Origin: a virus
Lineage: Duplodnaviria; Heunggongvirae; Uroviricota; Caudoviricetes
DNA length: 56,004 bases
IMG/VR virus record: IMGVR_UViG_2744054632_000003
Reading direction: 5' to 3' (one strand)
The position numbers were made by a program, and so were the translations under genes. The notes beneath the pieces are model-generated. The model ran no database searches and had not been told where the DNA came from. It saw nothing but the letters and a program-made list of their open reading frames with translations. This document shows, one piece after another, positions 1,121-35,882 of this stretch (its first letter is position 1; each line of letters begins with the position of its first letter).

Positions 1121-1420
1121 TCACCCACGATTAACCAACAGCCAGACCAGCAGACACGCCACCACCGGCACAGCAAAATCCATCAGACTTGCTACATCCC
1201 ACGCGCGCGGATCAAAACCGCCCCACCACGGCATATTCATTCGCTTGCCATGCCCGAACATTTCAATCCAGCGATATTCTGCCTGGGTGTGTTCACGCGC
1301 AATGAAGAACGTACAACCGGCTATCGCCCCGTAAGCCCAGTTCCCGGTAAAAAGACCAATCAGTAGCTGCGCAGCCACAGCACAAAGCGCATGAAGGAAA
1401 GGTGTTATATCCATTTTCAT
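1121..1420 (-). CDS. small hydrophobic protein of unknown function
   Basis: ORF MKMDITPFLHALCAVAAQLLIG... with hydrophobic segments; first ATG is the fourth codon of the listed ORF. Confidence 0.4.
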   Translation of the reverse strand: MKMDITPFLHALCAVAAQLLIGLFTGNWAYGAIAGCTFFIAREHTQAEYRWIEMFGHGKRMNMPWWGGFDPRAWDVASLMDFAVPVVACLLVWLLVNRG

Positions 1421-1459
1421 CCTACCCAATAAAACGGGGCGCTCGACCCCTTAATATTA

Positions 1460-2495
1460 TTAAGACGCAAGCGCCGCCTCAATTGCAGATAATCTTTGTC
1501 TTAATTCTGCGTTTTCTTCTTCCAGTGCTGTTATCCTGTCGTCTGACTCTCTGGCTACCTGAACAAGCAAGCCAGTAACACCAGAATAATCTACTGTGTA
1601 ATAACGTTCACCTTCTTCACCTTCCGATCCGCTTGCACCGTCCTGATATTTCATTGCGGAACCTACAACTTCTGGGATTGCTTCCAGAGCTTCCTGTGCA
1701 ATGACACCAGCATAGGGGATACCGTTTTCTTTAAGCGTGTATGTATAGCCGTTCATTTTACGGATGCGGTCGGTTGCATTATCGATCACCTGAATGTTGT
1801 CTTTCAGATCCCGGTCGGAATGCTGGTTAAATGTGGTGGCATGACATGCACCATTAACGCTTAACATATAGGTGTTATCGGTATTTTTCTGCGCATAGAA
1901 CATATAAGCGCCACCATCAACACCGACTTCATAAACAACAGGACGGCTGGAGTTGCCCCACAATTGAGCAGTAACACCAGCATAAGCGGTTCCCTGTGTG
2001 TTTAATGTCATGGTTGACCCATGATTGGCATATTTGATCTGTAATGTGTCGGTGTAATCAAATTTAATAAGCGCGTTACTTCCACGCTTGCTGTATGACA
2101 TAAGGCAGTTACCCATTTTGAGGTATCCGCTGTCACCGGGAAAAATCATCGTACCGCCATAAAGGTTGGTAGAGTCCCAGCAAATGTTTGTCCCGTTATC
2201 GTTCAGGTTAAGGCGCGCCATTGCGTTACCTGGACTGTCTATCCATTTTTTGAGGTATAGTTCGCAATACGCATCCTCAACACCTGCCGTCCTGTGAGTT
2301 GAGCGGAGTTTTCTCCCAAATATAGCTCCGCTAGTTGGCAATACCTGCTGATACCATGAAGCAGACCAGTCACCAACGATTTCATCTTTGCTGTCTACAT
2401 ATAATTTTGTTGCGTAGCTCCTTGATCGTTTTTTAATTTGCTAACGTCGGATTTTAGCGTTTTGATGTCATCAGGAATTACTGTCGATGTAGCCA
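1460..2495 (-). pseudogene. tail fibre/spike distal protein with C-terminal intramolecular chaperone (peptidase S74-like) domain; apparent frameshift near 2395-2400
   Basis: C-terminus GYTYTLKENGIPYAGVIAQEALEAIPEVV...YYTVDYSGVTGLLVQVARE matches the endosialidase-type chaperone domain; a 33-codon ORF (MATSTVIPDDIKTLKSDVSKLKNDQGATQQNYM) from ATG at 2495 ends in TAG while the 293-aa frame is open just upstream of it; one missing base in an A/T run would join them. Confidence 0.55.
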
Positions 2496-2505
2496 TTTTT
2501 CTTCC

Positions 2506-2787
2506 TCACATCCAGCCACGAAGTTGATGCTCAACAGCAACCACGTATTCATCGAATAATGACGATATTTGCGAATCATTAATGATGCGCACGTTTACAA
2601 AATATCCGTCTTCCTTAACACATACCGGTTCGCCATCTTCAGTCAGTTCTCCGGTTTCTTTGTACGCGTTACCTATCACGTCAATAAGAATATCATCCTG
2701 CATCGACTCGTCATCATAATAGCCAATACTCTCCATAAAGGCCGAAAAGTCGGCCCTGTCGGCAAATTTGAGTGTTAAATCTTTCAT
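2506..2787 (-). CDS. hypothetical 93-aa protein coupled to stf (possible fibre chaperone)
   Basis: ATG overlaps stf stop (TAATG); acidic small protein; no recognised family. Confidence 0.35.
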   Translation of the reverse strand: MKDLTLKFADRADFSAFMESIGYYDDESMQDDILIDVIGNAYKETGELTEDGEPVCVKEDGYFVNVRIINDSQISSLFDEYVVAVEHQLRGWM

Positions 2788-5168: not shown

Positions 5169-5173
5169 TCCAC

Positions 5174-5199
5174 AAAAAAGCCCGCCTGAACCGGCGGGC
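5174..5199 (-). terminator. rho-independent terminator downstream of lom
   Basis: Hairpin GCCCGCC-tgaacc-GGCGGGC followed on the minus strand by TTTTTT. Confidence 0.5.
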
Positions 5200-5226
5200 T
5201 GTCATAACACTGTGTTACCTGGCTAA

Positions 5227-5826
5227 TCAGAACTTATAACCGACACCCACGATGAAACCGTCAGTGCGCCAGTCGCCACTGCCGGAGCCTTCATAAGCAA
5301 TATCAATGGCCACGGATTCGGTCGGGTTAAACTGCACGCCAGCTCCCCACGCCAGAGACGTGTTGCTGTGGCGATCGTCATCACTTCCGGTCAGCACATC
5401 GTGCGTTTTCCCCTTGTTGTCAGTTACGCGGAGATAATCCCCGGAGAACGTCGAAACGCGGCTGTAAGCCACACCTGCCATCGCATAAGCACTGAACCAT
5501 TCATTCACGCGTACAGATGGCCCCGCCATCATGCTGAACCAGCGGTTACGCACTGAATCTTCATGCCAGCGGGTATCGCTGTAATGCGTTCTTTGCTCAT
5601 CTTTGGCATTGGCATAACTGAATGACGTCACCAGCCCCAGCGTGTCCGTAAATTCATAACGGTATTTCACGTTAATGCCCTTCAGGTCATCACTGCCTGG
5701 CATATCAGTATGGGTCTGAAGATACCCGGCGCTTAGTGTGGACTGATGCTCTGCTGCGCTCGCTGGCGTACCAGCGGCAACCAGCCAGACTACTGCGGAC
5801 AGAATAACAGCACATAATTTACGCAT
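5227..5826 (-). CDS. lom: Lom outer membrane protein (Ail/Lom family)
   Basis: Near full-length match to lambda Lom (MRKL...HQSTLSAGYL...GFIVGVGYKF). Confidence 0.95.
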   Translation of the reverse strand: MRKLCAVILSAVVWLVAAGTPASAAEHQSTLSAGYLQTHTDMPGSDDLKGINVKYRYEFTDTLGLVTSFSYANAKDEQRTHYSDTRWHEDSVRNRWFSMMAGPSVRVNEWFSAYAMAGVAYSRVSTFSGDYLRVTDNKGKTHDVLTGSDDDRHSNTSLAWGAGVQFNPTESVAIDIAYEGSGSGDWRTDGFIVGVGYKF

Positions 5827-8800: not shown

Positions 8801-9289
8801 ATACTGCGAGGTGGTTTTACCCTTAATGGTGATGTCTTTTTCCGTCACCCAGCCACCGTTACGTTGTATCTGAACCAGCAGGCGGACTTCCGATGGATTC
8901 CTGTCCCCCTTTGAGGTGGTTTCCACCAGTGCCTGCACACCGAAGGTAAAGCGCAGACGGTCGATGTTTGCCGACGTGATGGTGCGGGTGATCGGCGTGT
9001 CATATTTCACTTCCGTACCCAGCACCGTCTCGGAACCGGAGGATTCAAATCCCTCCGGCGGAGTCTGCTCCTGCTCACCGGCCCGGAACACCACCGTGAC
9101 GCCGGATATATTGGTATTCCCCTCACTGTCCAGCACCGGCGTACTGTTCAGCAGCACGCTTTTTAATCCATCCACCGGACCTTCAACCGGCCCTTCGCTG
9201 ATGGCATCGATCACACTCAGCAGCTGCGTGGACTTCAGGTTGTCCTTCGCTTCGCGCGGGGTATGCCCCTTACTGCTGCCTTTACCCAT
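5894..9289 (-). CDS. J: tail tip host-specificity protein J
   Basis: 1131 aa, colinear with lambda J ([26 protein letters not shown]...); C-terminal receptor-binding part diverges. Confidence 0.95.
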
Positions 9290-9349
9290 TCGTCATGCTC
9301 CATAAACGATAAAACCGCCCGGAGGCGGTTTCACATAAAACGTTTTTCA

Positions 9350-9991
9350 TCAGCGACCAATCACCACAACCTGACCACCATCACCTTCATCTGCTGTGCT
9401 GATCTCCTGAGATACCACACGTGATCCCACGCGCATTTCACCGTACAGAACGGGCAGAACATTGCCCTGGGCAACCATATTATCCAGTGAAGAAAAATAG
9501 GTGTTCTGTTTGCCGTTATCCGTTGTCTGTGTGCGGGGGGTTTTGGGTTTAGGGGCCAGCATCTGTGCAACACCGCCAAGCGTCATACTGGCACCGAGAG
9601 AAAACAGCAGATTACTCGCCATAATTCCTACCCCCGGCATCCATATAGCAACCGCCATAACAGCCGCCCCCAGCACAGCCTGAAACACACCGCCACTTTT
9701 GGCTCCTGCCAGACGCGGCACGATATGGATCACAGCACCATTTGCCAGCGGTTCATTAAGACGGGCTGATAATTCCGTTTCACCTGTATCACGCCCGGCA
9801 ATCCGTACCTGATACCAGCCGTCGCTCAGTTTCTGACGAAACGCCGGGAGCTGTGTGGCCAGCGCCCGGATGGCTTCAGCCCCCGTTTTCACACGAAGGT
9901 CGATGCGGCGACCAAATCGTTGTAAATCCCCGTAAAGGCAGATGCGCGCCATGCCCGGTGACGCCAGAGGGAGTGTGTGCGTCGCTGCCAT
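9350..9991 (-). CDS. I: tail assembly protein I
   Basis: MAATHTLPLASPGMARICLYGDLQRFGRR matches lambda I. Confidence 0.9.
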   Translation of the reverse strand: MAATHTLPLASPGMARICLYGDLQRFGRRIDLRVKTGAEAIRALATQLPAFRQKLSDGWYQVRIAGRDTGETELSARLNEPLANGAVIHIVPRLAGAKSGGVFQAVLGAAVMAVAIWMPGVGIMASNLLFSLGASMTLGGVAQMLAPKPKTPRTQTTDNGKQNTYFSSLDNMVAQGNVLPVLYGEMRVGSRVVSQEISTADEGDGGQVVVIGR

Positions 9992-17602: not shown

Positions 17603-18379
17603 TTACGCCAGTTGTACAGACACGAACTCATCAGGATCAGCCAGCAGCATCAGCGGTGCTGACTGAATCATGGTGAACTCACGCGCCGGATCGCCGGTGG
17701 TCACCCAGTTTTTCGGGTAACGGGCAGAGGCGTTAATGCCTTCGCGCTGTGCGTCCGCATCCTGAATGCAGCCATAGGTGCGCAGACCGCGTGCCTGAGT
17801 GTTCCCCAGCACCATCGTGTTGTCCGGCAGGAAGTTCTTTTTGACGCCGTTTTCCACGTACTGTCCGGAATACACGACGATGGCCACATCGCCATACATC
17901 CCCTTGTAGGACACCGCTTTGCCCAGGTCTTTCACCGCTGTCTCCAGCTCGGAATGAGAGCCGCGACGAGTATCCAGCTTCTCCTTGACGGCTTTGAAGG
18001 AACGGAACAGCGCCCAGCCTTTCGGATCAAACACGATGATATTCACCACTCCGCTGGCGTTCAGCGCGTAGGCTTCGATATCGTCGGTCGGGTCATACGT
18101 GGACTTGTCACGCTTGCTCCACTCCGTGCCGCCGGACTGCGTGATGTTGTTGGCCGCACTGCGGCCCATATCCACCTCAACCGGATCGAAAGCTTCACCG
18201 GTCATGGTGTATTTGCCCTTAAGCACGGCAGAAACTGCCTGCATCTCTTCGACCTGGGCAATGGCCAGCTCTTCGTCACGCATGTTCTGCATAATGATGC
18301 GACGGCGGCGGTAAGCCGGGTCCGCCAGATTCTGCGGATCTTCATCCGGCAGGCGACGCAGGGTCATCTGCGGATTCAC
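17603..18379 (-). pseudogene. E: major capsid protein E, C-terminal ~260 codons, separated from its N-terminal part by the island
   Basis: VNPQMTLRRLPDEDPQNLADPAYRRRRIIMQNMRDEEL...EFVSVQLA matches lambda E residues ~83-341; frame has a stop immediately upstream. Confidence 0.9.
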
Positions 18380-18520
18380 CTCATGCTTCGGCTACATGAG
18401 TCAAATATGAAAGGATCTGAATGATTTTTAATGAAATAAATGGCTCTCTCTATCAAAATACAGCTAAAAAGCAATACACGTAGCAATACAGCGCTTCGCA
18501 AAGGTATGTCACTATATCTA

Positions 18521-19486
18521 CTAGTGCCAACCAGAATACGAATATCTTTGCTTTGCTTCTTCTGGGCTCATACCCACTAGTAAAGATACTAATTCAAAGT
18601 CAGGTTGTGGAATTGGAATCAATGCAGCCAAATATGCTGGCTTATTGAGAACAATTGTTGATAATCTAGCTTTATTCACCTTAGATAACTCAATATTACT
18701 TTCCGCTACCTTCGGGAATTCCATAATAAATGAATCAATTTCCCTTATGAGATAATCGATCAACGCCACTATACTTTCTGTCAAATCAATATATTTTGAC
18801 AACTCACTAGCATCAATTTCTTTCTTTATTTCATCCAATTTAATTTCAAACACTGGCTTGTCTTTACTGGCAATATTAGACAAACGTTTCTTTAAATCTG
18901 AATCAAGCTGATTCCTGACAATTAAACTTTTCAAAACAAAATTATAATTAAACAAAAAAGCATCAATTCGAGCAATATTCCTCCATGAGTTTCCAATTTC
19001 TTCATCTGACGGCATAATAAGTTCATGTTTTAGTATCTTGTACTTAATAAAAAAAACAAACCTCTCAAATAGAGTTTTATTAGCTGTGGGTATCTTTTTT
19101 ATAAATGAAAGACGGCTAATATCGAAATTCACCTCCCCGGCGTTAAATAAAAGTTCATTTATTGCCAGCGCTCTAAATATTGGATTTCTAGATCTCAAAC
19201 CAATATAACTACTTTTAATTGCCACAAGTGTATTTATCATCTGAAAAGAAACCATCATAAGCGTATTAGCAGAATTAAATTTCTCCGTTTCTATTTTAAT
19301 CTTCTCCTGCCTATTATTGATACAATAAGCAGTTAAGCCTCCCATAAGCGCCGATAAAAAAGATAATGCAATAGGGAATACATAATCTTTTGTATAATCA
19401 ACATCTGCTTTCAACATTAGTATTGCTTTAGCAATCAAAACTGCATCAGGGGTCATGTTAGAGCCGTCATTAAAAATTAAACACAA
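18521..19486 (-). CDS. AT-rich membrane-associated protein of unknown function (island cargo; candidate defence gene)
   Basis: Ile/Lys/Asn-rich 321-aa ORF with N-terminal hydrophobic segments; low GC versus flanks; sits at island end next to attL. Confidence 0.5.
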   Translation of the reverse strand: MCLIFNDGSNMTPDAVLIAKAILMLKADVDYTKDYVFPIALSFLSALMGGLTAYCINNRQEKIKIETEKFNSANTLMMVSFQMINTLVAIKSSYIGLRSRNPIFRALAINELLFNAGEVNFDISRLSFIKKIPTANKTLFERFVFFIKYKILKHELIMPSDEEIGNSWRNIARIDAFLFNYNFVLKSLIVRNQLDSDLKKRLSNIASKDKPVFEIKLDEIKKEIDASELSKYIDLTESIVALIDYLIREIDSFIMEFPKVAESNIELSKVNKARLSTIVLNKPAYLAALIPIPQPDFELVSLLVGMSPEEAKQRYSYSGWH

Positions 19487-20149
19487 TACCCATAAAATAT
19501 AACAGCTTATTGTTTAGAAAAGCAATATCATACACTCTATGATAAGCGTAATATCTTACAGGCATGGTGTGTTACGACACTTAATTAAACGTAATTTGCT
19601 AAAATTTTACACACAGAATCACACCAGGCTCTAACTCTCCTTTCATTACAATTGTAAGCATACAATTATCCTACCAGAACTTTATTGTTAAGCTCTCCCT
19701 TTTGAGCCCATCCCATAATGAATTGACGAAAGAACCGTATCTGTGGAGTAATCATTTCTGCGCGGTTCTATGTCGAAGACAAAATATGGTATGCGCATCT
19801 AGTCAGAGGGAAAGCAATTTTTCAGGGAAATATCATCTCTACATGGTTAAAACAACCAGAAGAAGTTATCAAGCAAGTTGGGTATGAAGATTTTCCTATA
19901 ATAGTAACGAAACGGGTTTCACCTGAGCGGTTGTGTTCGATCCGCCACAATACGCATAGGATGCCCTGTAATCCGTATTCTGCTTACTCAACAGCTTACC
20001 AGCAGGACTCGTAAGGCTGTTGCGATAGTGCAGAAGTAGGCCACGACCATAAAGTGAAGCCAGTGGCGCGTTATCGACTACTTTAGTGTAGAGCCTGATT
20101 TCAACGCAAGCGTGAGAGTTTTTTCTGGCGATAGGCCGTGACAAACAGC

Positions 20150-20330
20150 AACAAAATCAGAGAAAGGAAACGGCAGAGGCCAAAAAGCCCGTTTTCAGCG
20201 CCAGTCATTTCCTTTCTTTTCAGGGGGGATTTTAAATAAAAACATAAAGTTACGGCGAAGAAGAACGGAAACGCCTTAAACCGGAAAATTTCCATAAATA
20301 GAGAAAAACTGCGCGCCTGACGCCCCGTAA
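20150..20330. other. island cos site: cosB-like region and divergent cosN
   Basis: About 85 percent identical and colinear with prophage cos region 34950-35130; at the cosN position island has GCCTGACGCCCC where the prophage has AGGTCGCCGCCC. Confidence 0.65.
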
Positions 20331-20381
20331 CGTTCTGGATCGCCGGAAAGGACCCGCCAGCCAGAGCGGGCCCTAATTTCA

Positions 20382-20765
20382 TCAACCAATCAGCTTATAG
20401 CGACCATCCCGTGCATTGCGGCGTACACGCTCAATCTTGAGGCATAGCGCCGCATCTGGCTTTTTTGGGACAGGTACGCGGCAATATTCAGAAGCGCGAG
20501 GAATATTATTTATCCAGTCGATCACTTCACTTAAATACCAGGCCTTACGCCCTTCCGTAACCTGCACACGCTCCGGGAACTCTCCACTAGCCTCAAGGTT
20601 TAGCAGTGTACGACGACTCAGGGTTGTAATTTCCATCACCTGATTCATATCAACAAGGCGCTCGCTTAAACACATTTTGTCAGCGATAGCTTTTAATTCC
20701 TCTACAGCTGGATTCGGGTACATCATTTCGGCAATTGGCTTAAGGTCATTGTAATCATTCTGCAT
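20382..20765 (-). CDS. AlpA-like HTH protein adjacent to island cos (candidate packaging-redirection or regulatory protein)
   Basis: LSRRTLLNLEASGEFPERVQVTEGRKAWYLSEVIDWI resembles the AlpA/excisionase HTH fold; gene ends immediately at the island cos. Confidence 0.5.
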   Translation of the reverse strand: MQNDYNDLKPIAEMMYPNPAVEELKAIADKMCLSERLVDMNQVMEITTLSRRTLLNLEASGEFPERVQVTEGRKAWYLSEVIDWINNIPRASEYCRVPVPKKPDAALCLKIERVRRNARDGRYKLIG

Positions 20766-20776
20766 TGTATCCCCCT

Positions 20777-21118
20777 TTACACACGAGCCAGCGGCTGAAC
20801 AGAAATACCTGAGCCAACAAACGCTGCAACCTTTACTGACAGTTCTTTAACAGACTCAGGCCAGTTCAGAGCATCAACATTTAAGACACCTGTCTTATAG
20901 ACCTGAGCCTGTGTTTTTTTCGCGGTGTCGATTTGTACAGCGGAAACATAAACCGCTTTACCTACGCTCGAACCATCCCATACCACCAGTGCACCTGTTG
21001 CATCTTCCTGCATCAGTGGCGTAAATGCAGGAATTACCCCTTTATTAGCTGAAAATATCCCCAGCGTAGTCACCAGTGCTTCAGTGCCAGCCATGAGTTC
21101 AGTGTAATGAGTAGCCAT
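20777..21118 (-). CDS. head decoration protein D homologue (island-encoded)
   Basis: TPLMQEDATGALVVWDGSSVGKAVYVSAVQ...VYKTGVLNVDALNWPES aligns with lambda [32 protein letters not shown]...[17 protein letters not shown]. Confidence 0.7.
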   Translation of the reverse strand: MATHYTELMAGTEALVTTLGIFSANKGVIPAFTPLMQEDATGALVVWDGSSVGKAVYVSAVQIDTAKKTQAQVYKTGVLNVDALNWPESVKELSVKVAAFVGSGISVQPLARV

Positions 21119-21127
21119 TGCTCCCCC

Positions 21128-22168
21128 TTAGCCAATGCGAACGGTAACAAAACGATTGATGCGGGCCGGTATTGGCTGTGGTGCTGAATGTGTCTGCACA
21201 TATTCAATAGCCGGATCACCAGGCACAATATAGTTTTTCGGTGCAAGTTCGGCTTTAGTCAGCCCCATTCGGATTAGCTCCGGATCCTGAATACCGCCAT
21301 AGGCGACAATCCCCTGAAGAGCCGTATTGCCAAGCACCATCAAATCAGGATCAAGGAAATGTTTTTCAGTTCCGTCCTCGTCGGTATAACGCCCGCTGTA
21401 AACAACAATCGCAACATCGCCCATATATCCTTTAAAACTCACCGAATCACCAAGGTCTTTAAGGGCCGTTTCCAGTTCGGAATTAGAACCACGACGGGTA
21501 TCCAGAGCCTCTTTTATCGCTCTGAATGAACGGTATTTCTTCCATACATTACCGCCCATAATGATGATATTAGTGACGCCCTCACTAAATTCTGCGTAGC
21601 TCTCAATATCATCATTTGGATCAAAAGTTTCTTTATCCTTACCTGACCACTCAGTACCGCCAGACTGAGTGATGATATTTTGTGGTTTAATATTCCAGTC
21701 CAGCTCATAACGTTCAATACCATCGCCCTCAATGATATTTTTCCCCGTTGTGATTGCCTGAACGGCAAGCCATTCAATACGTGCACGAATAGCTTTAGCT
21801 TGATTTACAATCGCCTGTTTAACTTTAATATTACGCGCCCCAAAAGCATTGTATTGCTCAGGTGATACACCAGCAGGGCGCACAGCTAACTTATTTGGAT
21901 CAATGCTGCTTTTCGGCTTCATATAGCCTGGACGAATTGTTTTTGATTCGTACCCTTCGTCACGTGAAACTTTACTACCCACCATAGGAGAACAAAACGC
22001 TGCAATTGGGATATTTGGATCGTCGATTGTATCAAGAATAATATCGCGCGATCCAAACATTACCGAGCGAGTAAAAAACAAACTGGTAAACAACGCATTT
22101 AGTTGTTTTTGTACATCTACAGCATTAACCACCTGTACAAGCTGGGTAGGCGAATATAAATCAACCAT
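21128..22168 (-). CDS. major capsid protein E homologue (island-encoded, divergent)
   Basis: ITQSGGTEWSGKDKETFDPNDDIESYAEF...RSFRAIKEALDTRRGSNSELETALKDLG...VAIVVYSG colinear with lambda E; start taken at MVDLYSPTQLVQ with AAGAGG 6 nt upstream. Confidence 0.8.
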   Translation of the reverse strand: MVDLYSPTQLVQVVNAVDVQKQLNALFTSLFFTRSVMFGSRDIILDTIDDPNIPIAAFCSPMVGSKVSRDEGYESKTIRPGYMKPKSSIDPNKLAVRPAGVSPEQYNAFGARNIKVKQAIVNQAKAIRARIEWLAVQAITTGKNIIEGDGIERYELDWNIKPQNIITQSGGTEWSGKDKETFDPNDDIESYAEFSEGVTNIIIMGGNVWKKYRSFRAIKEALDTRRGSNSELETALKDLGDSVSFKGYMGDVAIVVYSGRYTDEDGTEKHFLDPDLMVLGNTALQGIVAYGGIQDPELIRMGLTKAELAPKNYIVPGDPAIEYVQTHSAPQPIPARINRFVTVRIG

Positions 22169-22385
22169 ACGCATCCTCTTTGCATTCATTAAAAATAATT
22201 GTGGATATATGCTATCACCGATATTTGTCATGCGAACACATGCAACCGAGTGCAATGTTGTATAAAGTTTTGGGGTGACAACTTCAGTGCGAACAATTAG
22301 TGTTAATATATTCACTCCCTTTGGTCGGGATTTATGTAGCATGCCGGAAAATTTATTTTTTCCGGCCTTTTTTTATTGGCAATAT

Positions 22386-22835
22386 TTAAAATGGGATATC
22401 ATCTCCCCATTGCTCATTATCTCCCACTGGTGGCTGGCTTCCTTGCTGATCTGCCTGTTGTTTTGCTCTGTTCAGTGCGTCAGTAGCCTGCCCCTGTTGG
22501 CCTTTTTTGCCGCCCGGTCGCACCGATCGCGCACTGATTACGCTGTCTGCGATAACCTGCCAGCCCTGCCGCGTTTCGCCGTTCTGTCCAGTCCACTGGC
22601 TCATCTGCATGTTACCCGCCACGCTCAGGAGTTCGCATTTGTGATGCTTTGCCAGCGCGTCGGCTTGTCTGCCAAACGCCAGGACAGATAACCACATCGT
22701 CGCCTGACCGTCATCCGACTGACTGCAAGGCAGTGATACCGCCATACGCGCCAGCGTCATGGGGGTGCCCTTGCTGGTCTGTTTTGTCTGCGGGTCGTCC
22801 ACCAACCGCCCGTAAACTGATATTTGCGCCGTCAT
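22386..22835 (-). CDS. single-stranded DNA-binding protein-like
   Basis: OB-fold-like N-terminus and Gly/Gln-rich tail ending in acidic DDIPF, the SSB C-terminal signature. Confidence 0.65.
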   Translation of the reverse strand: MTAQISVYGRLVDDPQTKQTSKGTPMTLARMAVSLPCSQSDDGQATMWLSVLAFGRQADALAKHHKCELLSVAGNMQMSQWTGQNGETRQGWQVIADSVISARSVRPGGKKGQQGQATDALNRAKQQADQQGSQPPVGDNEQWGDDIPF

Positions 22836-23077
22836 GCTGCCTGCTCTCCGGACTTAATATTGATTGTTGTCACTTCCTCCGCTTCAGCAATCTCCCGTTC
22901 GGTCAGAGTGGCAAAGTTTGCAGCCGCCGTTGTCATGAATGCGCTAATCAGTTCGGGATGTGCTTTCGCGTATCCTTCCCCGGCGTTGCGGTCGATGATT
23001 TTTATCGACACCCTTAACCAGTGTTCAGTCAAATCAAGGGCGTGCGATTGTGATTTTTTTGTGTGCTTCGCTGTCAT
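22832..23077 (-). CDS. hypothetical protein (81 aa)
   Basis: ORF overlapping start of SSB-like gene by 4 nt; no recognised family. Confidence 0.35.
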   Translation of the reverse strand: MTAKHTKKSQSHALDLTEHWLRVSIKIIDRNAGEGYAKAHPELISAFMTTAAANFATLTEREIAEAEEVTTINIKSGEQAA

Positions 23078-23128
23078 AGGCTTTATCTCACAGCAGTAAA
23101 TTAAAATTTTTGCGTTTTAACCCTTCAC

Positions 23129-23351
23129 CTGTTCACCTTTTGATATTTTCTCTTTTAATTCATAATGTTAATGGGTGAACAGTTTCACAAAAACTATTCA
23201 CCAACTGTTCACCACTGTTCACCCTTGAAGCTCAATAAACAATCAAAAAGGTGAACAGTGAATAGTTTGGTGAACAGTTCATAAATAACTGTTCACCCTA
23301 TAATACACTGATATAAAAGATATTTATGACAGGGTGAACAGTGGTGAACAG
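23129..23351. repeat. iteron cluster, probable island replication origin
   Basis: At least 10 copies of GGTGAACAG or its complement CTGTTCACC in both orientations in an AT-rich stretch just downstream of the primase-helicase gene. Confidence 0.7.
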
Positions 23352-23364
23352 TTATTCCATAAGT

Positions 23365-25185
23365 TTAATTTTTGCTATCGTCATTAGTGACCGATACACA
23401 TGATGGCATCCAGTCCTCTGATTCCTCCGTCAGTGTCACGTTTGAACGCAAACCGTGCTTCGTTTTCCGTTTCATATACTCCCTGCCATATTCCGCCATT
23501 GCCCCCGGCATATCTTTACCGAAGCGCGTCAGTGTTACAGGTTTACCAAACCCATGTGCCCTCATATAAGCCAGATAGGCATGATAGAGATACCTGCGTG
23601 GGCTGAATGGCACAATTTCAGCATTACCCACTAATAGGCCATCACACATTACCGATGCCATGAGATAGCCGCAGAAGTCCACCAGCGAATCCCCCTCTCG
23701 CTTTATCGCCAGTGCTTCTTCAGATTTCTGCTGCTCATATAACAGGCGTCTGGCTTCGTCCTGATCAGCAAACCGTGTAAGCAGATGACGAATCACTACC
23801 GCCAGCTCACCTTCTATTTTTTCCGCCAGCATCGAATCGCGTTCGTTCTCCGGTACAACTTCCGAAAAATTGAATATCACCCGACGACGTGAGATCCCCC
23901 CGCTGCGGTCACTGAATGACATGGCGTTATTGTTAACCGCCAGTACTACTGCCGGAATACGCGTTGAATAGGGGGCTTTGTGTTTCGGGTCAATTGCCAC
24001 CTTGTCACCGCCTGTAATGGCCTTAATCCCTGCCCCATCACCAGCGTAGCGGGTCATATCCGGCATGATAATCAGCGAAAAGCCAACCACTAACGCACGT
24101 TCCCTTGCATCTTCCAGCGCCTTCATGCTTGCTGATACTGTATTAGCCTTACCCGCCAGCATGGTGCAAATCTCCGCCATCACACTTTTACCACTTCCCC
24201 CCGGCCCTGTTACCTCAATGAATAACTGCCAGTCGTACCGGTTCGCCAGCACCATGAATAATGCCGCCAGTACGCGATCTGCCTTGCGGTCATTCTCAGC
24301 CACCGAACGGCGCAACCACTTCCAGAAATTCGGCGCATGTGTTGCCAGCGTTTCCCCCTCTGCTGGTGGGCTGAAAGGTAATTCACTGGCAATTAACAAC
24401 CAGTCGTTTTTGTTATGCTCCCGAAAATTACCAGTTCTGGTATCAAATACCCCGTTACTGAATCCAATCAGGTTACGGGCAGTATTCCCCATTACAGGCA
24501 AACTTAACTTCATGGTATCTACCGCCGATTTAATGGCGTTCTGCGAATAGCTGATCTCCGCATCAATGAAAATCTGCGCCATAGCACGCTGTAACTCTTT
24601 ATCCTGAACCGGCTCCCATACAACGCCGTTGTAATGATGAACGGTGTCAGAGTCGGCATTGATTGCCAGTTCGCCGCCGTAATGTGCAAGGAGAACTTCA
24701 CCGCGCTGGCTGGCCCCCATCTGATTCAACGCCAAAGATGAAGCACGCTCGTCATTTTTGCGCTCTGCCTTCTTCACTGGCAGTTCAATCACCAGACTTT
24801 CCCCATGCTCCGCTTCAGCTTTTAGGCCGACAAGGCGCGGAGTCCAGTCTTCAGGCTCTCGATCAACAAAGCTACGGTAACAACGTGCTTCCTTTACGCC
24901 TGCAATAGCAAGTAATGTCGCAACCTTCGTCAGACTTTTCTCTGCAATCTTTCCGGCACGATAAACACGCACATAATGACGGCCTTCATCGATAATTTGC
25001 ATATCATCCAGGTTTTCCAGTTGTTCCGTACCCAGAATGACTGGTGGTGTATCATCTGCTGCAATATGCTTACCTGCCCATTCATTCCATTCTTTTGCAT
25101 GGCTCCAGGCATCACTGCCAGCAAAAATGATGACTTCCGTCATTTTGTCGCGCGGTTGGTATTTTAAGTTCGGAGCACGTTTCAT
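23365..25185 (-). CDS. primase-helicase (P4 alpha / D5-like SF3 helicase family)
   Basis: Walker A GPGGSGKS, followed by conserved SF3 helicase-like region; GGAGGT 5 nt upstream of ATG at 25185. Confidence 0.8.
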   Translation of the reverse strand: MKRAPNLKYQPRDKMTEVIIFAGSDAWSHAKEWNEWAGKHIAADDTPPVILGTEQLENLDDMQIIDEGRHYVRVYRAGKIAEKSLTKVATLLAIAGVKEARCYRSFVDREPEDWTPRLVGLKAEAEHGESLVIELPVKKAERKNDERASSLALNQMGASQRGEVLLAHYGGELAINADSDTVHHYNGVVWEPVQDKELQRAMAQIFIDAEISYSQNAIKSAVDTMKLSLPVMGNTARNLIGFSNGVFDTRTGNFREHNKNDWLLIASELPFSPPAEGETLATHAPNFWKWLRRSVAENDRKADRVLAALFMVLANRYDWQLFIEVTGPGGSGKSVMAEICTMLAGKANTVSASMKALEDARERALVVGFSLIIMPDMTRYAGDGAGIKAITGGDKVAIDPKHKAPYSTRIPAVVLAVNNNAMSFSDRSGGISRRRVIFNFSEVVPENERDSMLAEKIEGELAVVIRHLLTRFADQDEARRLLYEQQKSEEALAIKREGDSLVDFCGYLMASVMCDGLLVGNAEIVPFSPRRYLYHAYLAYMRAHGFGKPVTLTRFGKDMPGAMAEYGREYMKRKTKHGLRSNVTLTEESEDWMPSCVSVTNDDSKN

Positions 25186-25469
25186 TTGTTACCTCCGGCA
25201 ACTAACATTGCCCGAATTTTACGGATATAGCCTGCGGCACGCCTCTGATTATCTGTCTTGCAATTTTTTACCAGAATGAAATCTCTTTCGAACTGCTGAC
25301 GCGGCATAACACATTCAAAATCATAACCATCACGCAAATAAGAGACACGACGATCATCAACCGAAATAATCTTTACCCGATAGCCATAGCTGTCTTTGAA
25401 AATATCCCCAAGGCTGATTTTTGAATGAGTTTGACCGCTGGCAATAAAGCCAGAAAATTTATTTTTCAT
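25182..25469 (-). CDS. hypothetical protein (95 aa)
   Basis: ORF translationally coupled to primase gene; no recognised family. Confidence 0.4.
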   Translation of the reverse strand: MKNKFSGFIASGQTHSKISLGDIFKDSYGYRVKIISVDDRRVSYLRDGYDFECVMPRQQFERDFILVKNCKTDNQRRAAGYIRKIRAMLVAGGNK

Positions 25470-25472
25470 TTT

Positions 25473-25697
25473 TTATTCTCCGGTATAGCTCTGGTCGTGT
25501 ATTTTTATAGCTTCATCCAGCTCTTTGATGACAGGATCAAGTAACGTAATTAACGCTCCAGCTAAATTAGCATCCCGTTCATCGTGTTCCGCATTTGTTG
25601 TCCCATCAAGCCAGGTTGATAAGATTTCTCGCATATTTTTGCCACAAACGAGCGCGTTTTCAGCATGTGTCAGCACTTTAAAATAAAGATCATTCAT
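25473..25697 (-). CDS. hypothetical protein (74 aa)
   Basis: ORF in same operon; no recognised family. Confidence 0.35.
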   Translation of the reverse strand: MNDLYFKVLTHAENALVCGKNMREILSTWLDGTTNAEHDERDANLAGALITLLDPVIKELDEAIKIHDQSYTGE

Positions 25698-26055
25698 GGC
25701 ACACCTCCTGACGAATACGGGCGGCGAATATCATCACGCAGCCAGTTGGGGATTGCTGGCGGGCTTCCTGTTCGCTGGTGGCCTCGATGGTAATCACGCG
25801 CGGTTGTGCCGTACTCAGGGCGATAAAACGCCAGATGAAATTGTTTTCACATTTCTGAATAAACAGCGTGTTTTCTTCCCGCCCTTTCCAGAAAGCCGCA
25901 GTATAGCCCATCTCCTTAACCATCTTGCGCGCATCAACCAGCGTGTCAGCGGCTACATGTACCGTAGTTGCTCCATCTGCTATGCGATCGCGATGTAGCG
26001 CCAGAAAGATGTATATAAATTTAGGGTGAGTTTGGGTATGCTGTGTTCCAGCCAT
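25690..26055 (-). CDS. hypothetical protein (121 aa)
   Basis: First gene of leftward island operon; no recognised family. Confidence 0.35.
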   Translation of the reverse strand: MAGTQHTQTHPKFIYIFLALHRDRIADGATTVHVAADTLVDARKMVKEMGYTAAFWKGREENTLFIQKCENNFIWRFIALSTAQPRVITIEATSEQEARQQSPTGCVMIFAARIRQEVCHE

Positions 26056-26085
26056 AGTCGTTACTCCAGTTAACGGTTTGTGGTT

Positions 26086-26190
26086 AGACGCCTAGGTGTG
26101 TTGCGAGCACCCTAGGGCGTTGTTTATAGGTATAACATCATGTTAATGTGTGTACCTATTCAACACTGATGCTAAGCAATAGGTACACAC
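26086..26190. promoter_or_regulatory. divergent promoter/operator region with two palindromes
   Basis: Perfect 15-bp inverted repeat ATGTGTGTACCTATT / AATAGGTACACACAT and imperfect palindrome CGCCTAGG...CCTAGGGCG between divergent operons. Confidence 0.5.
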
Positions 26191-26385
26191 ATGTCAACTA
26201 CAATTCAAAGAGATAAGCAGCCAAAAGGAGCCGGCAAAGCCCCTGCGTTTCAGATCCGAATCAATCCTGAACTCAAAGAACAGATGGCTGAATCAGCAGC
26301 TCAGGAAGGAATGAGCTTGGCCAATTGGATTAAAGAATTAGTTCGTGCTGAGCTTCGCCGTAAAGGTATAGAACCTAAAGGCTAA
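26191..26385 (+). CDS. ribbon-helix-helix (Arc/CopG-like) DNA-binding protein
   Basis: 64 aa; FQIRINPELKEQMAESAAQEGMSLANWIKELVRAEL fits the RHH beta-alpha-alpha pattern. Confidence 0.55.
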   Translation: MSTTIQRDKQPKGAGKAPAFQIRINPELKEQMAESAAQEGMSLANWIKELVRAELRRKGIEPKG

Positions 26386-26417
26386 TTTTTTTAATTTTTA
26401 TTGAATAGGATATTCAA

Positions 26418-27101
26418 ATGACTCCAACTCCTGACGATGCTGTATTCACTGCATCAAACATTATAAATTTCTTCGTGGCACTCGGGACTTGCACAGCAGT
26501 GTTAGTTGCATTAATTGCTAAAAAGCAATCATCTTTTGAATCAACATTTTCTCTCATGTTATCTCAACATAACAATGCTCTAAATGATCTTAGAAAAAAA
26601 TCAAATTACTCAGAGTTAATTAATAAAATGATGAATGGATTGGTTTCTTTAAAAGACACTAATACACTGATGCACAATCATGATGCTGTTTTTGGAAGCT
26701 ACTTCAGAATATTATATCATCTATTGAAGTTCATTGATGAAAATGCTGGATACCATCCCTTTGATCTAGATCGTAAAAAAACCTATACAAGCCTTGTCCG
26801 TGCACATCTAGATAATGAAATAACGTATTTACTTGCAATAAACTGTGCACATGCTAACAGTGAAAATCAATATCATTTTTATAAAACATTGATTGAGCGC
26901 TATGCCATGTTAGAACATTTAATCTTGGATAAATCAACGCTATTGGACTATACCCCTCCAGATTTAAATGAATATCAAAAAGATTTGCGCGTAGCAACAA
27001 TAGTGGTTACCGATGATATAAAAACTATTTTTAACGAGATTGCAACAGTATATTATAAGAGCGCATTTGGAAAAAACCCTGATTTAAAAAATTTCCTGTA
27101 A
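26418..27101 (+). CDS. AT-rich membrane-anchored protein of unknown function (island cargo; candidate defence gene)
   Basis: N-terminal TM helix IINFFVALGTCTAVLVALIA; AT-rich codons; co-oriented with RHH gene. Confidence 0.45.
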   Translation: MTPTPDDAVFTASNIINFFVALGTCTAVLVALIAKKQSSFESTFSLMLSQHNNALNDLRKKSNYSELINKMMNGLVSLKDTNTLMHNHDAVFGSYFRILYHLLKFIDENAGYHPFDLDRKKTYTSLVRAHLDNEITYLLAINCAHANSENQYHFYKTLIERYAMLEHLILDKSTLLDYTPPDLNEYQKDLRVATIVVTDDIKTIFNEIATVYYKSAFGKNPDLKNFL

Positions 27102-27127
27102 GATATAGGGAGGAATACCTCCCTAAC

Positions 27128-27358
27128 TTACCATTCACCTCTTATCCAAGCTTGAATCTCAGAGAGTCTATAAGCCACCGCCGTAGATCCGATTTTGATT
27201 CGCTTGGGGAATTTCCCCTCCTTTTCAAGCTTCCAGCGTGTGCTGTTCGCAAGAGTGGTTAGCTCCCGACATTCTTTCTCACGGATCATTCGGTCAATGT
27301 TAGGAATGTACTCCAGACCCTTTTTATCAACAATTGCCATTTTTTTCATGTTAACCAA
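27128..27358 (-). CDS. alpA: AlpA family transcriptional regulator / excisionase-like
   Basis: Small HTH protein immediately downstream of integrase; LEYIPNIDRMIREKECRELTTLANSTRWKLEKEGKFP. Confidence 0.7.
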   Translation of the reverse strand: MVNMKKMAIVDKKGLEYIPNIDRMIREKECRELTTLANSTRWKLEKEGKFPKRIKIGSTAVAYRLSEIQAWIRGEW

Positions 27359-28586
27359 CCTTTTGTTTGAGGATTGTCACTTTTGAATCAGCACCTGCGA
27401 TGCTATTGAGATATGTAGTCCAGAGTTCCAGAGCATCCAGTTTTTTAGCCATAAACTTACTCCGGTTGTAAACACCTGCCACGCCAGGTAGCGCATGGCC
27501 TAACAGTTGTTCTACTACATAAAATTCAACACCGAGATCACTTAGATGAGTAGATAGCGTTCTTCTAAGGTCGTGTAGTGACCATTGTTTTTCATGGCCC
27601 AAACGTTTACCGATTTTCCCCCCAATCTTGCTTACGCTTTCTCTAATTCGCAGACTTCCCAGCACATAACCAGTATGTTTTGTCTCTTCGTGAACATCCG
27701 TTACCCACTGTCGTAGAATTTCAGGTACTGGTCTGACGATTTCAACACCAGTTTTTGAGTGATCTTTTGGTACAGTCCAAACCCAACTTTCGAGATCCCA
27801 TTCGCTCCATTCTGATAATCGGGCTTCACTCATTCGACATCCAAATACTGTACAAAGCACAAACATTTTTCGCGTGTATTCAGACATTAGTTTTAAATCA
27901 GGCTCGACAAAAATTGCCTTCCAGAGCTGGCCGAGTTCGGCTTCATCCAGAACCCGATCCCGCTTACCTGCAATCTGCCCCACATCACTCATGCGCAAAT
28001 CCTTTAAAGCATCACACGTCGCGTACTGGCGTACCCGACAAAAACGAAGAGCTAATTTAGTGTCAGAAAAAACATACGCCGCCATAACTGGTGCATTACG
28101 TTTAATTCGGTCAAAACAGTCCAGCCATTCATATAGGTGAGTGTCATTTACGGGCAAATGACCGATATAGGGAAAGATATGCTTTCGAAATCTGCCAAGC
28201 GTTACAGCATGAGTTTTACGACGCACCTTACAGTAATTTTCATACCAGTAATTTAGTGCATCCTCCACTGTGACCGGCTTTAAGCGTTCTTCAGCCTGAA
28301 TCTTAATCTGGATACGCGGATCACGTTTGTCAGCCAACCAACCACGGCACTCGTCGCGCTTTTCCCTTGCCTGTTTGAGTGACATATCAGGATATTTACC
28401 CAACGTTAGCCAGACCGGAGCAGCCCGGCCACCTGCTAACCTGTAGAAGAAAACAAAGCTCACAGCCCCTTTAGTACTCACACGAATAGAAAGCCCCTTT
28501 CCATCAGCAATGGTGATCTGCTTTTCTCTGGGTTTCCCCAGATATCCTTTAAGCGCTTTGTCGCTCAGTTTGTTCTCGCCAGCCAT
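27351..28586 (-). CDS. int: tyrosine integrase (P4-type)
   Basis: Conserved HDLRRT and LLGH motifs of tyrosine recombinases; start taken at MAGENKL; adjacent to attR. Confidence 0.85.
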   Translation of the reverse strand: MAGENKLSDKALKGYLGKPREKQITIADGKGLSIRVSTKGAVSFVFFYRLAGGRAAPVWLTLGKYPDMSLKQAREKRDECRGWLADKRDPRIQIKIQAEERLKPVTVEDALNYWYENYCKVRRKTHAVTLGRFRKHIFPYIGHLPVNDTHLYEWLDCFDRIKRNAPVMAAYVFSDTKLALRFCRVRQYATCDALKDLRMSDVGQIAGKRDRVLDEAELGQLWKAIFVEPDLKLMSEYTRKMFVLCTVFGCRMSEARLSEWSEWDLESWVWTVPKDHSKTGVEIVRPVPEILRQWVTDVHEETKHTGYVLGSLRIRESVSKIGGKIGKRLGHEKQWSLHDLRRTLSTHLSDLGVEFYVVEQLLGHALPGVAGVYNRSKFMAKKLDALELWTTYLNSIAGADSKVTILKQKVG

Positions 28587-28748
28587 TTTTAGCCCCAAAA
28601 AGCAATACAAGCTGCAATACAGAGATGATTGCAACACACAGATAACGAGGAAAATTCAGTGAAAGCGCCAGATAAACTTATTCTTTATTATCAAAAGATT
28701 AAGTGTAAAAACCAGCAACTACACGAAAGCCTCAGAAAGCCATGCTAA

Positions 28749-28994
28749 GTGCTTCGGCTTGACATATCCCGGCGTAAATTCAGAGGTGGAGCCGCCACGG
28801 GAGCGGATAACCTCACCGGAAACAATCGGCGAAACGTACAGCGCCATGTTTACCAGCCCCGGAATTTGTGAGAGATAGACTTTCTCCGTGGTGAAGGGAT
28901 AGCTCTCACGGAAAAAGAGACGCAGAAACAGCGGATCAAACTTAAATTTCTGCTCATTTGCCGCCAGCAGCTGGGCGGTTGTGTACATCGACAT
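28749..28994 (-). pseudogene. E: major capsid protein E, N-terminal 82 codons, interrupted by island insertion
   Basis: MSMYTTAQLLAANEQKFKFDPLFLRLFFRESYPFTTEKVYLSQIPGLVNMALYVSPIVSGEVIRSRGGSTSEFTPGYVKPKH then reads LAWLSEAFV-stop into island DNA. Confidence 0.9.
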
Positions 28995-29049
28995 AAAAAA
29001 ATCCCGTAAAAAAAGCCGCACAGGCGGCCTTTAGTGATGAAGGGTAAGG

Positions 29050-34939: not shown

Positions 34940-35126
34940 CTCATTCCACGGACAAAAACAGAGAAAGGAAACGACAGAGGCCAAAAAGCTCGCTTTCAGC
35001 ACCTGTCGTTTCCTTTCTTTTCAGGGGGTGTTTTAAATAAAAACATTAGGTTACGGCGAAGAAGAACGGAAACACCTTAAACCGGAAAATTTTCATAAAT
35101 AGCGAAAACCCGCGAGGTCGCCGCCC
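34940..35126. other. prophage cos site (cosB and cosN)
   Basis: Reverse complement matches the recalled lambda left end GGGCGGCGACCTCGCGGGTTTTCGCTATTTATGAAAATTTTCCGGTTTAAGGCG; 12-nt cohesive-end sequence at 35115-35126. Confidence 0.85.
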
Positions 35127-35325: not shown

Positions 35326-35520
35326 ATGTCAACGAAGAACAGAACCCGCAGAACAACAACCCGCAACATCCGCTTTCCTAACCAAATGATTGAACAAATT
35401 AACATCGCTCTTGAGCAAAAAGGGTCCGGGAATTTCTCAGCCTGGGTCATTGAAGCCTGCCGTCGGAGACTAACGTCAGAAAAGAGAGCATATACATCAA
35501 TCCAAAGTGATGATGGATGA
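35326..35520 (+). CDS. ribbon-helix-helix-like small DNA-binding protein
   Basis: 64 aa; IRFPNQMIEQINIALEQKGSGNFSAWVIEACRRRL resembles the island RHH protein at 26191. Confidence 0.45.
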   Translation: MSTKNRTRRTTTRNIRFPNQMIEQINIALEQKGSGNFSAWVIEACRRRLTSEKRAYTSIQSDDG

Positions 35521-35882
35521 ACATCCCGGTTTCTTCCACCATCGCACCGGAAAAGCGACTATGAGGGTAACCCTGCGTCTGTCAGCACAGTAAAACCCGG
35601 TGTGCATCGTTTTTGATTATTCCCGCACACTCACGCAGAAGGAATTCCCCGTCGGGCTACGGTCATGGTTAATGCGGGAATACGGCGACGATACAGCGCA
35701 GCTAAAAGGGTAATAGACGGATAGACCGGTTTATTTCATTCCACAGGATTCTGAGTGTCCCCAACTTCCTCCAATAGTCTGAGCGTACACCTATATAGTT
35801 TTAATTTTCATCAATCCATTTAACTATCGTTTAATTGTTGTCACATAGGATTCTGCCGTTTTTAACAATGCAGGATAATAAG

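Follow-up and report, generated by a model that had tools for sequence, protein, structure and literature searches.

A predicted ribbon-helix-helix/operator and antisense RNA control module with a putAbiC-family cargo gene in a helper-embedded phage-inducible chromosomal island

We analyzed a 56,004-nucleotide stretch of viral DNA (Caudoviricetes; IMG/VR record IMGVR_UViG_2744054632_000003), hereafter the window, with attention to positions 26,086 to 27,101. This segment is the control region of a helper-embedded phage-inducible chromosomal island (HE-PICI) that occupies about 10.3 kb of the window (~18400-28700). An initial annotation had proposed that palindromic operators separate a leftward operon, leading to the primase, from a rightward operon encoding a ribbon-helix-helix (RHH) protein and a 227-aa membrane-anchored protein. 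The divergent layout is as described (Table 1). The observation is confirmed, and the interpretation first given to it is supported in part: one palindrome behaves as a candidate operator matched to the RHH protein, and the other looks like the end of a candidate antisense RNA. We consider it rather probable, taking the model as a whole, that the locus is an RHH/operator and antisense RNA control module carrying a putAbiC-family cargo gene. Eleven complete E. coli genomes contain the 1.1-kb region, with 99.8-99.9% identity.

Table 1. Features of the island control region and adjoining genes, in window coordinates
Feature	Coordinates	Strand	Description
Integrase gene	27351-28637	−	Arm-DNA-bind_3 and Phage_integrase; with alpA, the integration zone flanking the cargo slot
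alpA regulator gene	27128-27349	−	Pfam Phage_AlpA, 57 bits
Hairpin TAGGGAGG-AATA-CCTCCCTA	27108-27127	.	Separates the convergent cargo and alpA genes; probably a terminator in both directions
putAbiC-family protein, 227 aa	26418-27101	+	Pfam PF16872; N-terminal membrane anchor, all-alpha domain; defense-candidate cargo
Arc-like RHH protein, 64 aa	26191-26385	+	Proposed repressor and specificity determinant; family profiles, P22 Arc as nearest solved relative
Candidate operator, right arm	26178-26192, core 26179-26190	.	In the P_L spacer; holds the Shine-Dalgarno-like AGG of the RHH gene and the first two bases of its ATG
Candidate leftward promoter P_L (replication operon)	26169-26197	−	−35 TTGACA (26197-26192) overlapping the RHH ATG; 17-nt spacer; −10 TAGCAT (26174-26169)
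Candidate operator, left arm	26146-26160, core GTGTGTACCTAT 26148-26159	.	Overlaps −10/+1 of P_R and about +2 to +17 of P_L; co-varies with the RHH beta-strand
Candidate rightward promoter P_R (RHH and cargo)	26120-26149	+	−35 TTGTTT (26120-26125); extended −10 TGtTAATGT (26141-26149)
Second, imperfect palindrome with T-run	26087-26125 (GC-rich hairpin 26087-26121)	+	Read as an intrinsic terminator
Stem-loop 1 of the candidate antisense RNA	26059-26075	+	Loop CUCCAGU complementary to the icd-like Shine-Dalgarno GGAG
Candidate cis-antisense RNA, about 78 nt	26049-26126, predicted ends	+	Complementary to the start codon, Shine-Dalgarno and leader of the icd-like gene
Candidate −10 of the antisense promoter, TATGCT	26037-26042	+	Inside icd-like codons 5-7, about 45 nt upstream of the hairpin
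icd-like gene	25690-26055	−	First gene of the leftward operon; NCBIfam phage_ICD_like, 81.7 bits; its ribosome-binding site is the proposed antisense target

Inverted repeat and RHH protein at the divergent promoters

The perfect 15-bp inverted repeat that had been reported (ATGTGTGTACCTATT / AATAGGTACACACAT) is present at 26146-26160 / 26178-26192, with a 17-nt spacer. Comparison with relatives narrows it to a 12-bp conserved core in each arm, and the outer 3 bp are paired in the present copy only. Across the 56-kb window, perfect inverted repeats of at least 13 bp whose loop does not exceed 40 nt occur at one other place, 34962-35018, where a 16-bp repeat forms the lambda cos-region hairpin adjoining Nu1. 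First-order Markov simulation predicts 0.13 perfect 12-bp repeats per window, and a chance origin of the 15-bp repeat is therefore excluded. Exact matches to the half-site are limited to the two arms, and a search for additional RHH sites across the window returned none beyond chance level. The distance between the GTAC centers of the arms is 31 bp, or roughly three helical turns, and in every locus the repeat overlaps the start codon of the RHH gene.

That gene, also part of the initial annotation, encodes a 64-aa protein that scores above cut-off with both NCBIfam YlcI_YnfO_N (37 bits, cut-off 30) and Pfam HicB (27.4 bits, cut-off 21), the latter being its best Pfam match. Matches to Pfam RHH_1 and Arc are sub-threshold, and weak NCBIfam and Pfam matches point to RepA2/CopB-type and RepB regulators. 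RefSeq names it a "YlcI/YnfO family protein" and labels its homologues "HicB family antitoxin"; a recent survey likewise lists the RHH protein as "HicB antitoxin" or "YlcI/YnfO prophage protein" (PMC13612085). When an RHH profile was compared with the PDB, P22 Arc was the best solved relative (E 3.8e-4), and RHH residues 19, 21 and 23 align to Arc Q9, N11 and R13. These three Arc residues contact bases. The helper prophage has a YlcI RHH gene of its own (35327-35521, near the cos hairpin and Nu1), whose product is 25% identical to the island protein and has the same ATGTCAAC start.

We then compared the operator arms with the RHH protein across loci drawn from E. coli genomes, from one genome per species of Kluyvera, Citrobacter, Morganella, Rahnella and Franconibacter, from Klebsiella and Pectobacterium islands, and from viral and metagenome contigs. 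The scan of the other genera gave 5 loci, and most of the diversity came from the viral and metagenome scans. Counting each combination of upstream region and RHH protein once left 93 distinct loci. Across them, both arms change jointly and track the heptapeptide of the RHH beta-strand, whose residues 19 and 21 co-vary with both arms. The present half-site GTGTGTACCTAT goes with the strand PAFQ[IV]RI (37 distinct loci), while GTACGTAC[AG]TAA goes with PTFQIRI (31, with one exception), GTGTACACCTAT with PPFHMRI (12), GTGGCCACCTAA with PQFKMRI (7), GTATAGACCTAA with PMFNVRI (3) and GTG(AC/GT)CACCTA with PQFRMRI (1). A further class is found in another PICI (locus L002), where a more distant RHH protein (PPYQMRL) is accompanied by the palindrome GGTAATTACC, present twice at a distance of 30 bp. 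There are thus about six RHH/operator specificity classes. Since residues 19, 21 and 23 align with the base-contacting residues of Arc, the residues that switch between classes are those expected to read DNA, and under the proposed recognition code the substitution Q21H would shift preference from GTGTGTACC to GTGTACACC.

The RHH gene of the L002 class (9187-9360, in a PICI of E. coli STEC005) is a 57-aa open reading frame (ORF) that RefSeq leaves unannotated. Other unannotated RHH genes may exist in many of the 466 E. coli genomes with the leader motif described below.

The repeat sits on two candidate promoters that overlap face-to-face, both assigned from conservation. P_L agrees with the sigma-70 consensus at 10 of 12 positions in a consensus scan. 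Its −35 is invariant in the aligned relatives, and A(−11) and T(−7), in the loop of the repeat, are nearly so; the sequences of the 93 loci were gathered by matching the P_L −35 motif and cannot add to the invariance of that element. P_L is also present in the diverged L002 class. The right arm occupies its spacer and the left arm lies just past its start site, so that the two bracket the −10. On the other strand, the P_R signature (TG at 26141-2, TA at 26144-5 and GT at 26148-9, with TTG at 26120) is at least 97% conserved in the 93 sequences. We read it as an extended −10 promoter for the RHH gene, with a predicted start inside the left arm, near 26156; that of P_L would fall near 26162.

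Because the arms co-vary with the RHH beta-strand and overlap both P_L and P_R, the RHH protein is very probably the predicted operator-binding repressor. Repression of the island replication operon by this protein, as the initial annotation had suggested, is thereby backed in silico. The operon in question runs leftward from P_L and comprises the icd-like gene, a small ORF, a DUF4222 gene, a D5-type primase/helicase gene (23365-25185), another small ORF and an SSB gene, in ORFs that overlap or abut. Just past the primase gene, where replication origins of PICIs have been reported, is a perfect 12-bp inverted repeat (23288-23299 / 23331-23342), a possible origin element or terminator.

The putAbiC-family cargo gene and its slot

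The 227-aa protein was correctly described as the product of an AT-rich gene (32% GC, against 48% for the island core) and as membrane-anchored; a single hydrophobic helix spans approximately residues 13-34, where the Kyte-Doolittle profile peaks at 2.41. Residues 88-171 match the Pfam putAbiC family at 60.2 bits (gathering threshold 22; E 2.8e-16). PADLOC models match it weakly, AbiC over the 56 residues 82-137 only (18.5 bits, E 2.8e-4) and AbiP at 18.9 bits (about 3e-4). RefSeq already names the protein "putative phage abortive infection protein" (WP_001560451.1). Homologues at 48-83% identity occur across Enterobacterales, and all 33 of the 33 carry the putAbiC domain. The conserved motifs are GSYFRILYHLLKFID, LAINC.H, LIERY..LEH and AFG, residues Y95, R97, H101, E160 and E166/H167 are invariant, and the N-terminus MTPTPDDAV is variable. 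The AlphaFold2 model is confident and all-alpha (predicted local distance difference test score 88.5), with a long N-terminal helix, and gave no informative match among solved structures. A literature search found no paper on the enterobacterial putAbiC clade, and we know of no phenotype for it.

An echo had also been noted between this N-terminus and an internal MTPDAV segment of the protein at 18521-19486. Both strings are there, but MTPDAV is the RefSeq N-terminus of that protein and not internal to it. Homology of the 227-aa and 311-aa proteins was rejected: BLASTP found nothing, hhalign gave a probability of 0.5%, and the N-terminus is not conserved among putAbiC homologues. The 311-aa protein itself (18524-19456, minus strand), at the 3' end of the island, is encoded by an AT-rich gene (30-33% GC), has an N-terminal membrane helix and matches no Pfam, NCBIfam or PADLOC model; it is an uncharacterised second cargo candidate.

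The position of the putAbiC gene is a variable slot. We recorded the gene immediately downstream of the RHH gene in 161 loci and found putAbiC in 14, a 241-aa family in 9, a 147-aa membrane protein in another 9, PD-T7-1 in 8 (PADLOC E 7e-151; 1e-124 for a truncated copy), SWIM in 7 and DUF5677 in 6. No plus-strand ORF of at least 50 aa follows the RHH gene in 32 loci; the rest contain other families or have nothing but unclassified ORFs of less than 95 aa. The copies of PD-T7-1, a validated defense system, stand in the slot of sibling islands (L005, at 4103-5185; L039 and relatives), and the slot of L016 contains the type I toxin-antitoxin locus hok/sok (5620-5791; Rfam sok, 97.5 bits). At its distal side, the slot is closed by the hairpin that separates the cargo from alpA; the 61-nt stretch holding it (27085-27145) folds at −17.6 kcal/mol on the plus strand and −22.3 on the minus strand. 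Each sibling island has a different strong hairpin between the cargo stop and the alpA stop, and the present terminator probably travels with its cargo.

The order RHH, putAbiC, alpA, int recurs in HE-PICIs of Klebsiella and Pectobacterium at 52-59% protein identity, in islands inserted into other prophage late genes. The Pectobacterium island (L020) has in addition a GmrSD-type gene (1239-3002) in a mid-island slot by the replication genes, and so two defense-type cargo positions. Elsewhere putAbiC is a lone cargo, in an integrative and conjugative element, in a CP4-57-like island and beside a P2-type replication gene, and these solitary homologues adjoin defense and anti-restriction genes. 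They indicate that the 227-aa protein does not need the RHH protein.

We therefore regard the 227-aa gene as accessory cargo and a putative anti-phage gene, in line with the cargo or effector role first suggested for it, because it belongs to the putAbiC family and lies in a variable slot that holds the validated PD-T7-1 in sibling islands. The protein could instead serve in superinfection exclusion of the helper, have an island-specific function or be a neutral passenger, and the anti-phage role of the family in Enterobacteria is a prediction from sequence, with weak PADLOC matches and an uninformative fold comparison. Given the Pfam domain, the company of validated defense genes in the slot and the defense neighborhoods of the solitary homologues, we find this alternative unlikely, while taking it more seriously than any other considered here.

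Satellite ends are known sites of this kind: PMC11364771, citing Fillol-Salom 2022, documents the 5' and 3' ends of PICIs as sites of immune systems. Like these and the hotspots of P4 (PMC9122126), the slot fixed between the RHH gene and alpA receives many unrelated small cargoes. It differs from them in being, by prediction, fused transcriptionally to the autoregulated regulator gene of the island, and in that each cargo comes with its own terminator.

Second palindrome and candidate antisense RNA

The second, imperfect palindrome had likewise been proposed as an operator. It exists, at 26087-26121, and is maintained by compensatory changes, but the operator role does not hold: because the hairpin is strand-specific, covaries and is followed by a T-run, it looks like the plus-strand terminator of a candidate cis-antisense RNA of about 78 nt. 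The 14 pairs of the hairpin, compared across 13 diverse sequences, are formed in 98% of cells, and 6 of them show compensatory double changes; when the pairing partner was slid by 1-3 columns as a control, pairing fell to 26-49%. The hairpin folds at −19 kcal/mol on the plus strand. The first stem-loop of the candidate RNA has 5 pairs, 100% paired in the same 13 sequences, 2 of them with compensatory changes. Upstream, T26037, A26038 and T26042 of the candidate antisense −10 are at least 97% conserved in the 93 sequences, whereas the three intervening bases are variable (TAnnnT), as are the residues encoded there (His/Ser, Gln/Asn). The candidate thus has the generic features of a cis-antisense RNA, namely strand-specific conserved stem-loops, a U-run and complementarity to the ribosome-binding site of its target.

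A covariance model (R1) built from 14 sequences matched 65 RHH-bearing loci outside the training set and one plasmid locus (L185), always on the RHH strand. In the 65 loci the match scores 28-98 bits and stops 63-66 nt short of the RHH start, and the motif was found in none of 3 putAbiC loci outside PICIs. The leader and RNA motif, together with the 5' end of an icd-like gene, is present in 466 of 5,426 complete E. coli genomes, and the module occurs across Enterobacterales. The RHH gene with its leader and RNA motif also turned up 32 times on E. coli plasmids; in one of these places, L185 (plasmid pC21A02010), the module (5024-5346) is immediately followed by a WYL (BrxR-like) regulator and a BREX system.

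The same palindrome could act without any antisense RNA, either in the leader of the leftward mRNA or as a protein site (as a stabiliser, in antitermination or for AlpA). The P_L transcript leader necessarily includes the complementary hairpin, no antisense promoter passed the consensus scan, and the best sub-threshold Rfam match, to the R1162 family, lies on the minus strand. We nevertheless hold this alternative to be improbable, as the strand preference runs the other way. Over all predicted stems of the RNA region in the 93 sequences, there are 1105 Watson-Crick pairs, 230 that are G-U on the plus strand and 2 that are A-C, and consensus folding of the hairpin (Alifold) gives −22.2 kcal/mol on the plus strand and −8.2 on the minus strand. 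On the plus strand only, the stem is followed in most homologues by a T-rich run, the TAnnnT signature stands about 45 nt upstream on that strand, and the plus strand has no gene upstream of the hairpin that would need a terminator.

A permissive Rfam scan placed two sub-threshold matches here, to SymR (RF01809, 24.7 bits against 61) and, on the minus strand, to the R1162 countertranscript RNA (ctRNA; RF00043, 28.1 bits against 55). Both recur at the corresponding position of L015 and of L016, three loci in all, and we take them as architectural resemblance only. No match to C4 (RF01695) or isrK RNA was found in the window.

Control model, competing readings and related systems

We propose that RHH dimers would bind the two 12-bp half-sites (GTGTGTACCTAT), which bracket the P_L −10 and overlap the weaker P_R. 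Binding would shut the strong P_L, keeping the icd-like gene, DUF4222, primase and SSB off, and would leave the weak P_R autoregulated. The plus-strand RNA, starting at about the icd-like start codon, presenting an anti-Shine-Dalgarno loop and ending at the hairpin and T-run, would pair with the icd-like leader and block translation of the first, coupled gene, with polarity on the genes downstream, as a second lock on leaky transcription. putAbiC would be co-transcribed with the RHH gene from P_R up to its own terminator hairpin, and the low autoregulated output of P_R in a quiescent island may allow the cargo to protect the host, and hence the island and the helper prophage, from other phages. 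Upon induction, the helper would have to override the locks; AlpA-dependent transcription entering from the right could achieve this, as could loss of the RHH protein. Matched RHH/operator classes may act as the immunity or incompatibility determinant of the island.

Several points weigh against this model. The class switches that support the RHH/operator pairing are few (~6), and locus L015 violates the class rule at position 19. A simple consensus scan called neither P_R nor the antisense promoter, whose −35 is weak and whose −10 signature lies in coding sequence, so that its conservation could partly reflect the protein. No Rfam family matched at its gathering threshold anywhere in the window. 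Finally, transcription in the model island EcCICFT073 is unidirectional and activated by AlpA, with no repressor described (PMC6092414).

Instead of being a DNA operator, the repeat might fold in the leader of the RHH mRNA into a hairpin that sequesters the Shine-Dalgarno and AUG and so controls translation. The right arm does contain AGG and the ATG start, the hairpin would be stable whichever strand is folded (−20 to −25 kcal/mol, z-scores −3.2 and −5.0), and some single mismatches between the arms are G-U compatible on the plus strand. We favored this reading at first, when four single mismatches were seen to be G-U on that strand, and dropped it once L018 and L020 proved to have A-C on the plus strand and the operator was found to co-vary with the beta-strand. 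The mismatches are thus free of strand bias, unlike those of the terminator hairpin, which disfavors an RNA stem, and a stem would not require its sequence to follow RHH residues. In the L002 class each arm is itself palindromic. The extended −10 of P_R, moreover, would start the RHH transcript inside the left arm and leave the mRNA without the full stem. We judge the RNA reading very improbable.

A DNA site bound by AlpA or a helper-phage factor, with the RHH protein regulating something else or only itself, has an equally slim appeal. AlpA is the only regulator demonstrated in Gram-negative PICIs (PMC6092414), but across classes the arm sequence co-varies with the RHH beta-strand, in a comparison confined to the RHH protein, and the repeat keeps its place over the RHH start codon. 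As for AlpA itself, a resemblance to the Pseudomonas antiterminator was sought and rejected: phmmer against the PDB matched none of the P. aeruginosa AlpA chains and returned only an unrelated "AlpA family" entry, 8c3t. AlpA read-through in the island is therefore offered as speculation.

That the RHH and 227-aa proteins form an antitoxin and effector pair, as the RefSeq antitoxin label, the HicB match, the putative abortive infection effector close behind and the recurrence of the pairing in Klebsiella and Pectobacterium might suggest, is scarcely credible and was rejected on genomic context: there is no HicA adjacent to the RHH gene, the same RHH precedes at least ten unrelated gene families or, in the 32 loci of the census, nothing, putAbiC homologues are solitary elsewhere, the RHH position is locked to the icd-like leader and promoter and not to the cargo, and the operator is conserved in islands without cargo.

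The RHH/operator and antisense RNA module we propose belongs to an element of known type. The island, in the order int, alpA, control region, replication genes, capsid, decoration, helix-turn-helix and 311-aa gene, is inserted in a lambdoid prophage, whose lambda-E-like major capsid gene it divides into fragments at ~17603-18391 and ~28750-28995. Lambda-like head and tail genes surround it, and capsid fragments flank it in RefSeq records too. It carries an E-like capsid gene of its own (RefSeq coding sequence at about 21127-22167, in ORF 21128-22342) and a decoration gene. With int, alpA and primase in the conserved order, a size inside the 10-20 kb range and neither tail nor lysis genes, it is an HE-PICI of the "11capE" type described by Tommasini, Mageeney and Williams (PMC10111431), who showed helper-phage induction and transfer for a related island rather than for this one. 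The Rfam int-alpA RNA motif (RF02996) was undetectable between int and alpA in the present island; it occurs there in L006 (5948-6014) and L014 (7828-7896).

Compared with the HE-PICI Eco567.11capE and Gram-negative PICIs such as EcCICFT073, the island has the same int, alpA, dynamic zone and icd/DUF4222/primase/SSB genes, followed by captured capsid and decoration genes. In HE-PICIs, the zone between alpA and the replication genes is a dynamic "Bro zone", sometimes with C4/isrK-type immunity RNAs (PMC10111431), and for Gram-negative PICIs at large Fillol-Salom et al. describe unidirectional transcription and an unclear global repressor (PMC6092414). Here, in contrast, the zone holds a reversed RHH and cargo unit with candidate operators and a different candidate antisense RNA. 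Our literature searches for PICIs with RHH proteins or antisense RNA found no description of an RHH and antisense RNA module. While the element type and the cargo category are already known, the RHH/operator code and the candidate antisense RNA thus appear to be undescribed in the searchable literature.

The closest parallels lie in plasmids and phage immunity regions. Plasmid copy control pairs an RHH repressor with a countertranscript, as in CopG/RNAII of pMV158 and CopB/CopA of IncFII R1. As in pMV158, R1 and R1162/RSF1010, the island RHH protein is predicted to repress a replication promoter while a short, terminator-ended antisense RNA covers the ribosome-binding site of the first gene. 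The island differs in being integrative and phage-dependent, in an RHH gene divergent from the replication operon instead of at its upstream end and in an icd-like target in place of an initiator gene; against the R1162 ctRNA family, its candidate RNA falls short of Rfam membership (about 28 bits against 55). The immI region of P22 (Arc, Mnt and sar RNA) similarly joins an Arc-type RHH protein, an operator at overlapping face-to-face promoters and an antisense RNA. In P22 an Arc tetramer sits on a single 21-bp operator; the island has two sites 31 bp apart. With immI of P1 (c4, icd, ant), the island shares a first gene that is icd-like and closely coupled to those behind it. In P1, the c4 RNA comes from the same strand and acts in trans after processing, while the island candidate is a cis-antisense transcript, and no antirepressor gene lies downstream in the island. 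Like AbiC and the putAbiC single-gene candidates, the cargo is an AT-rich mobile gene encoding a small, N-terminally anchored product with the same domain; it departs from AbiC in its weak and partial PADLOC match and in a fold that has no informative solved relative.

More broadly, and as a tentative idea to which we give slightly less than even odds, the RHH protein, operator and antisense RNA may be the missing plasmid-like immunity and replication control of a large branch of Gram-negative PICIs and P4-like satellites, with mutually blind classes that would spare co-resident islands cross-regulation and with P_R as an expression platform for swappable defense cargo. The cargo itself adds one more member to a known category. 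The RHH/operator code and the candidate antisense RNA, for their part, bear on how Gram-negative PICIs stay silent, and the pairs of beta-strand and half-site make up a compact table of natural specificities for Arc-like RHH proteins. Should the RHH protein and the antisense RNA indeed keep the replication operon silent, this would explain satellite quiescence, provide an immunity or incompatibility typing readable from sequence, with about six classes, and account for the expression of defense cargo from the 5' slot of an uninduced island.

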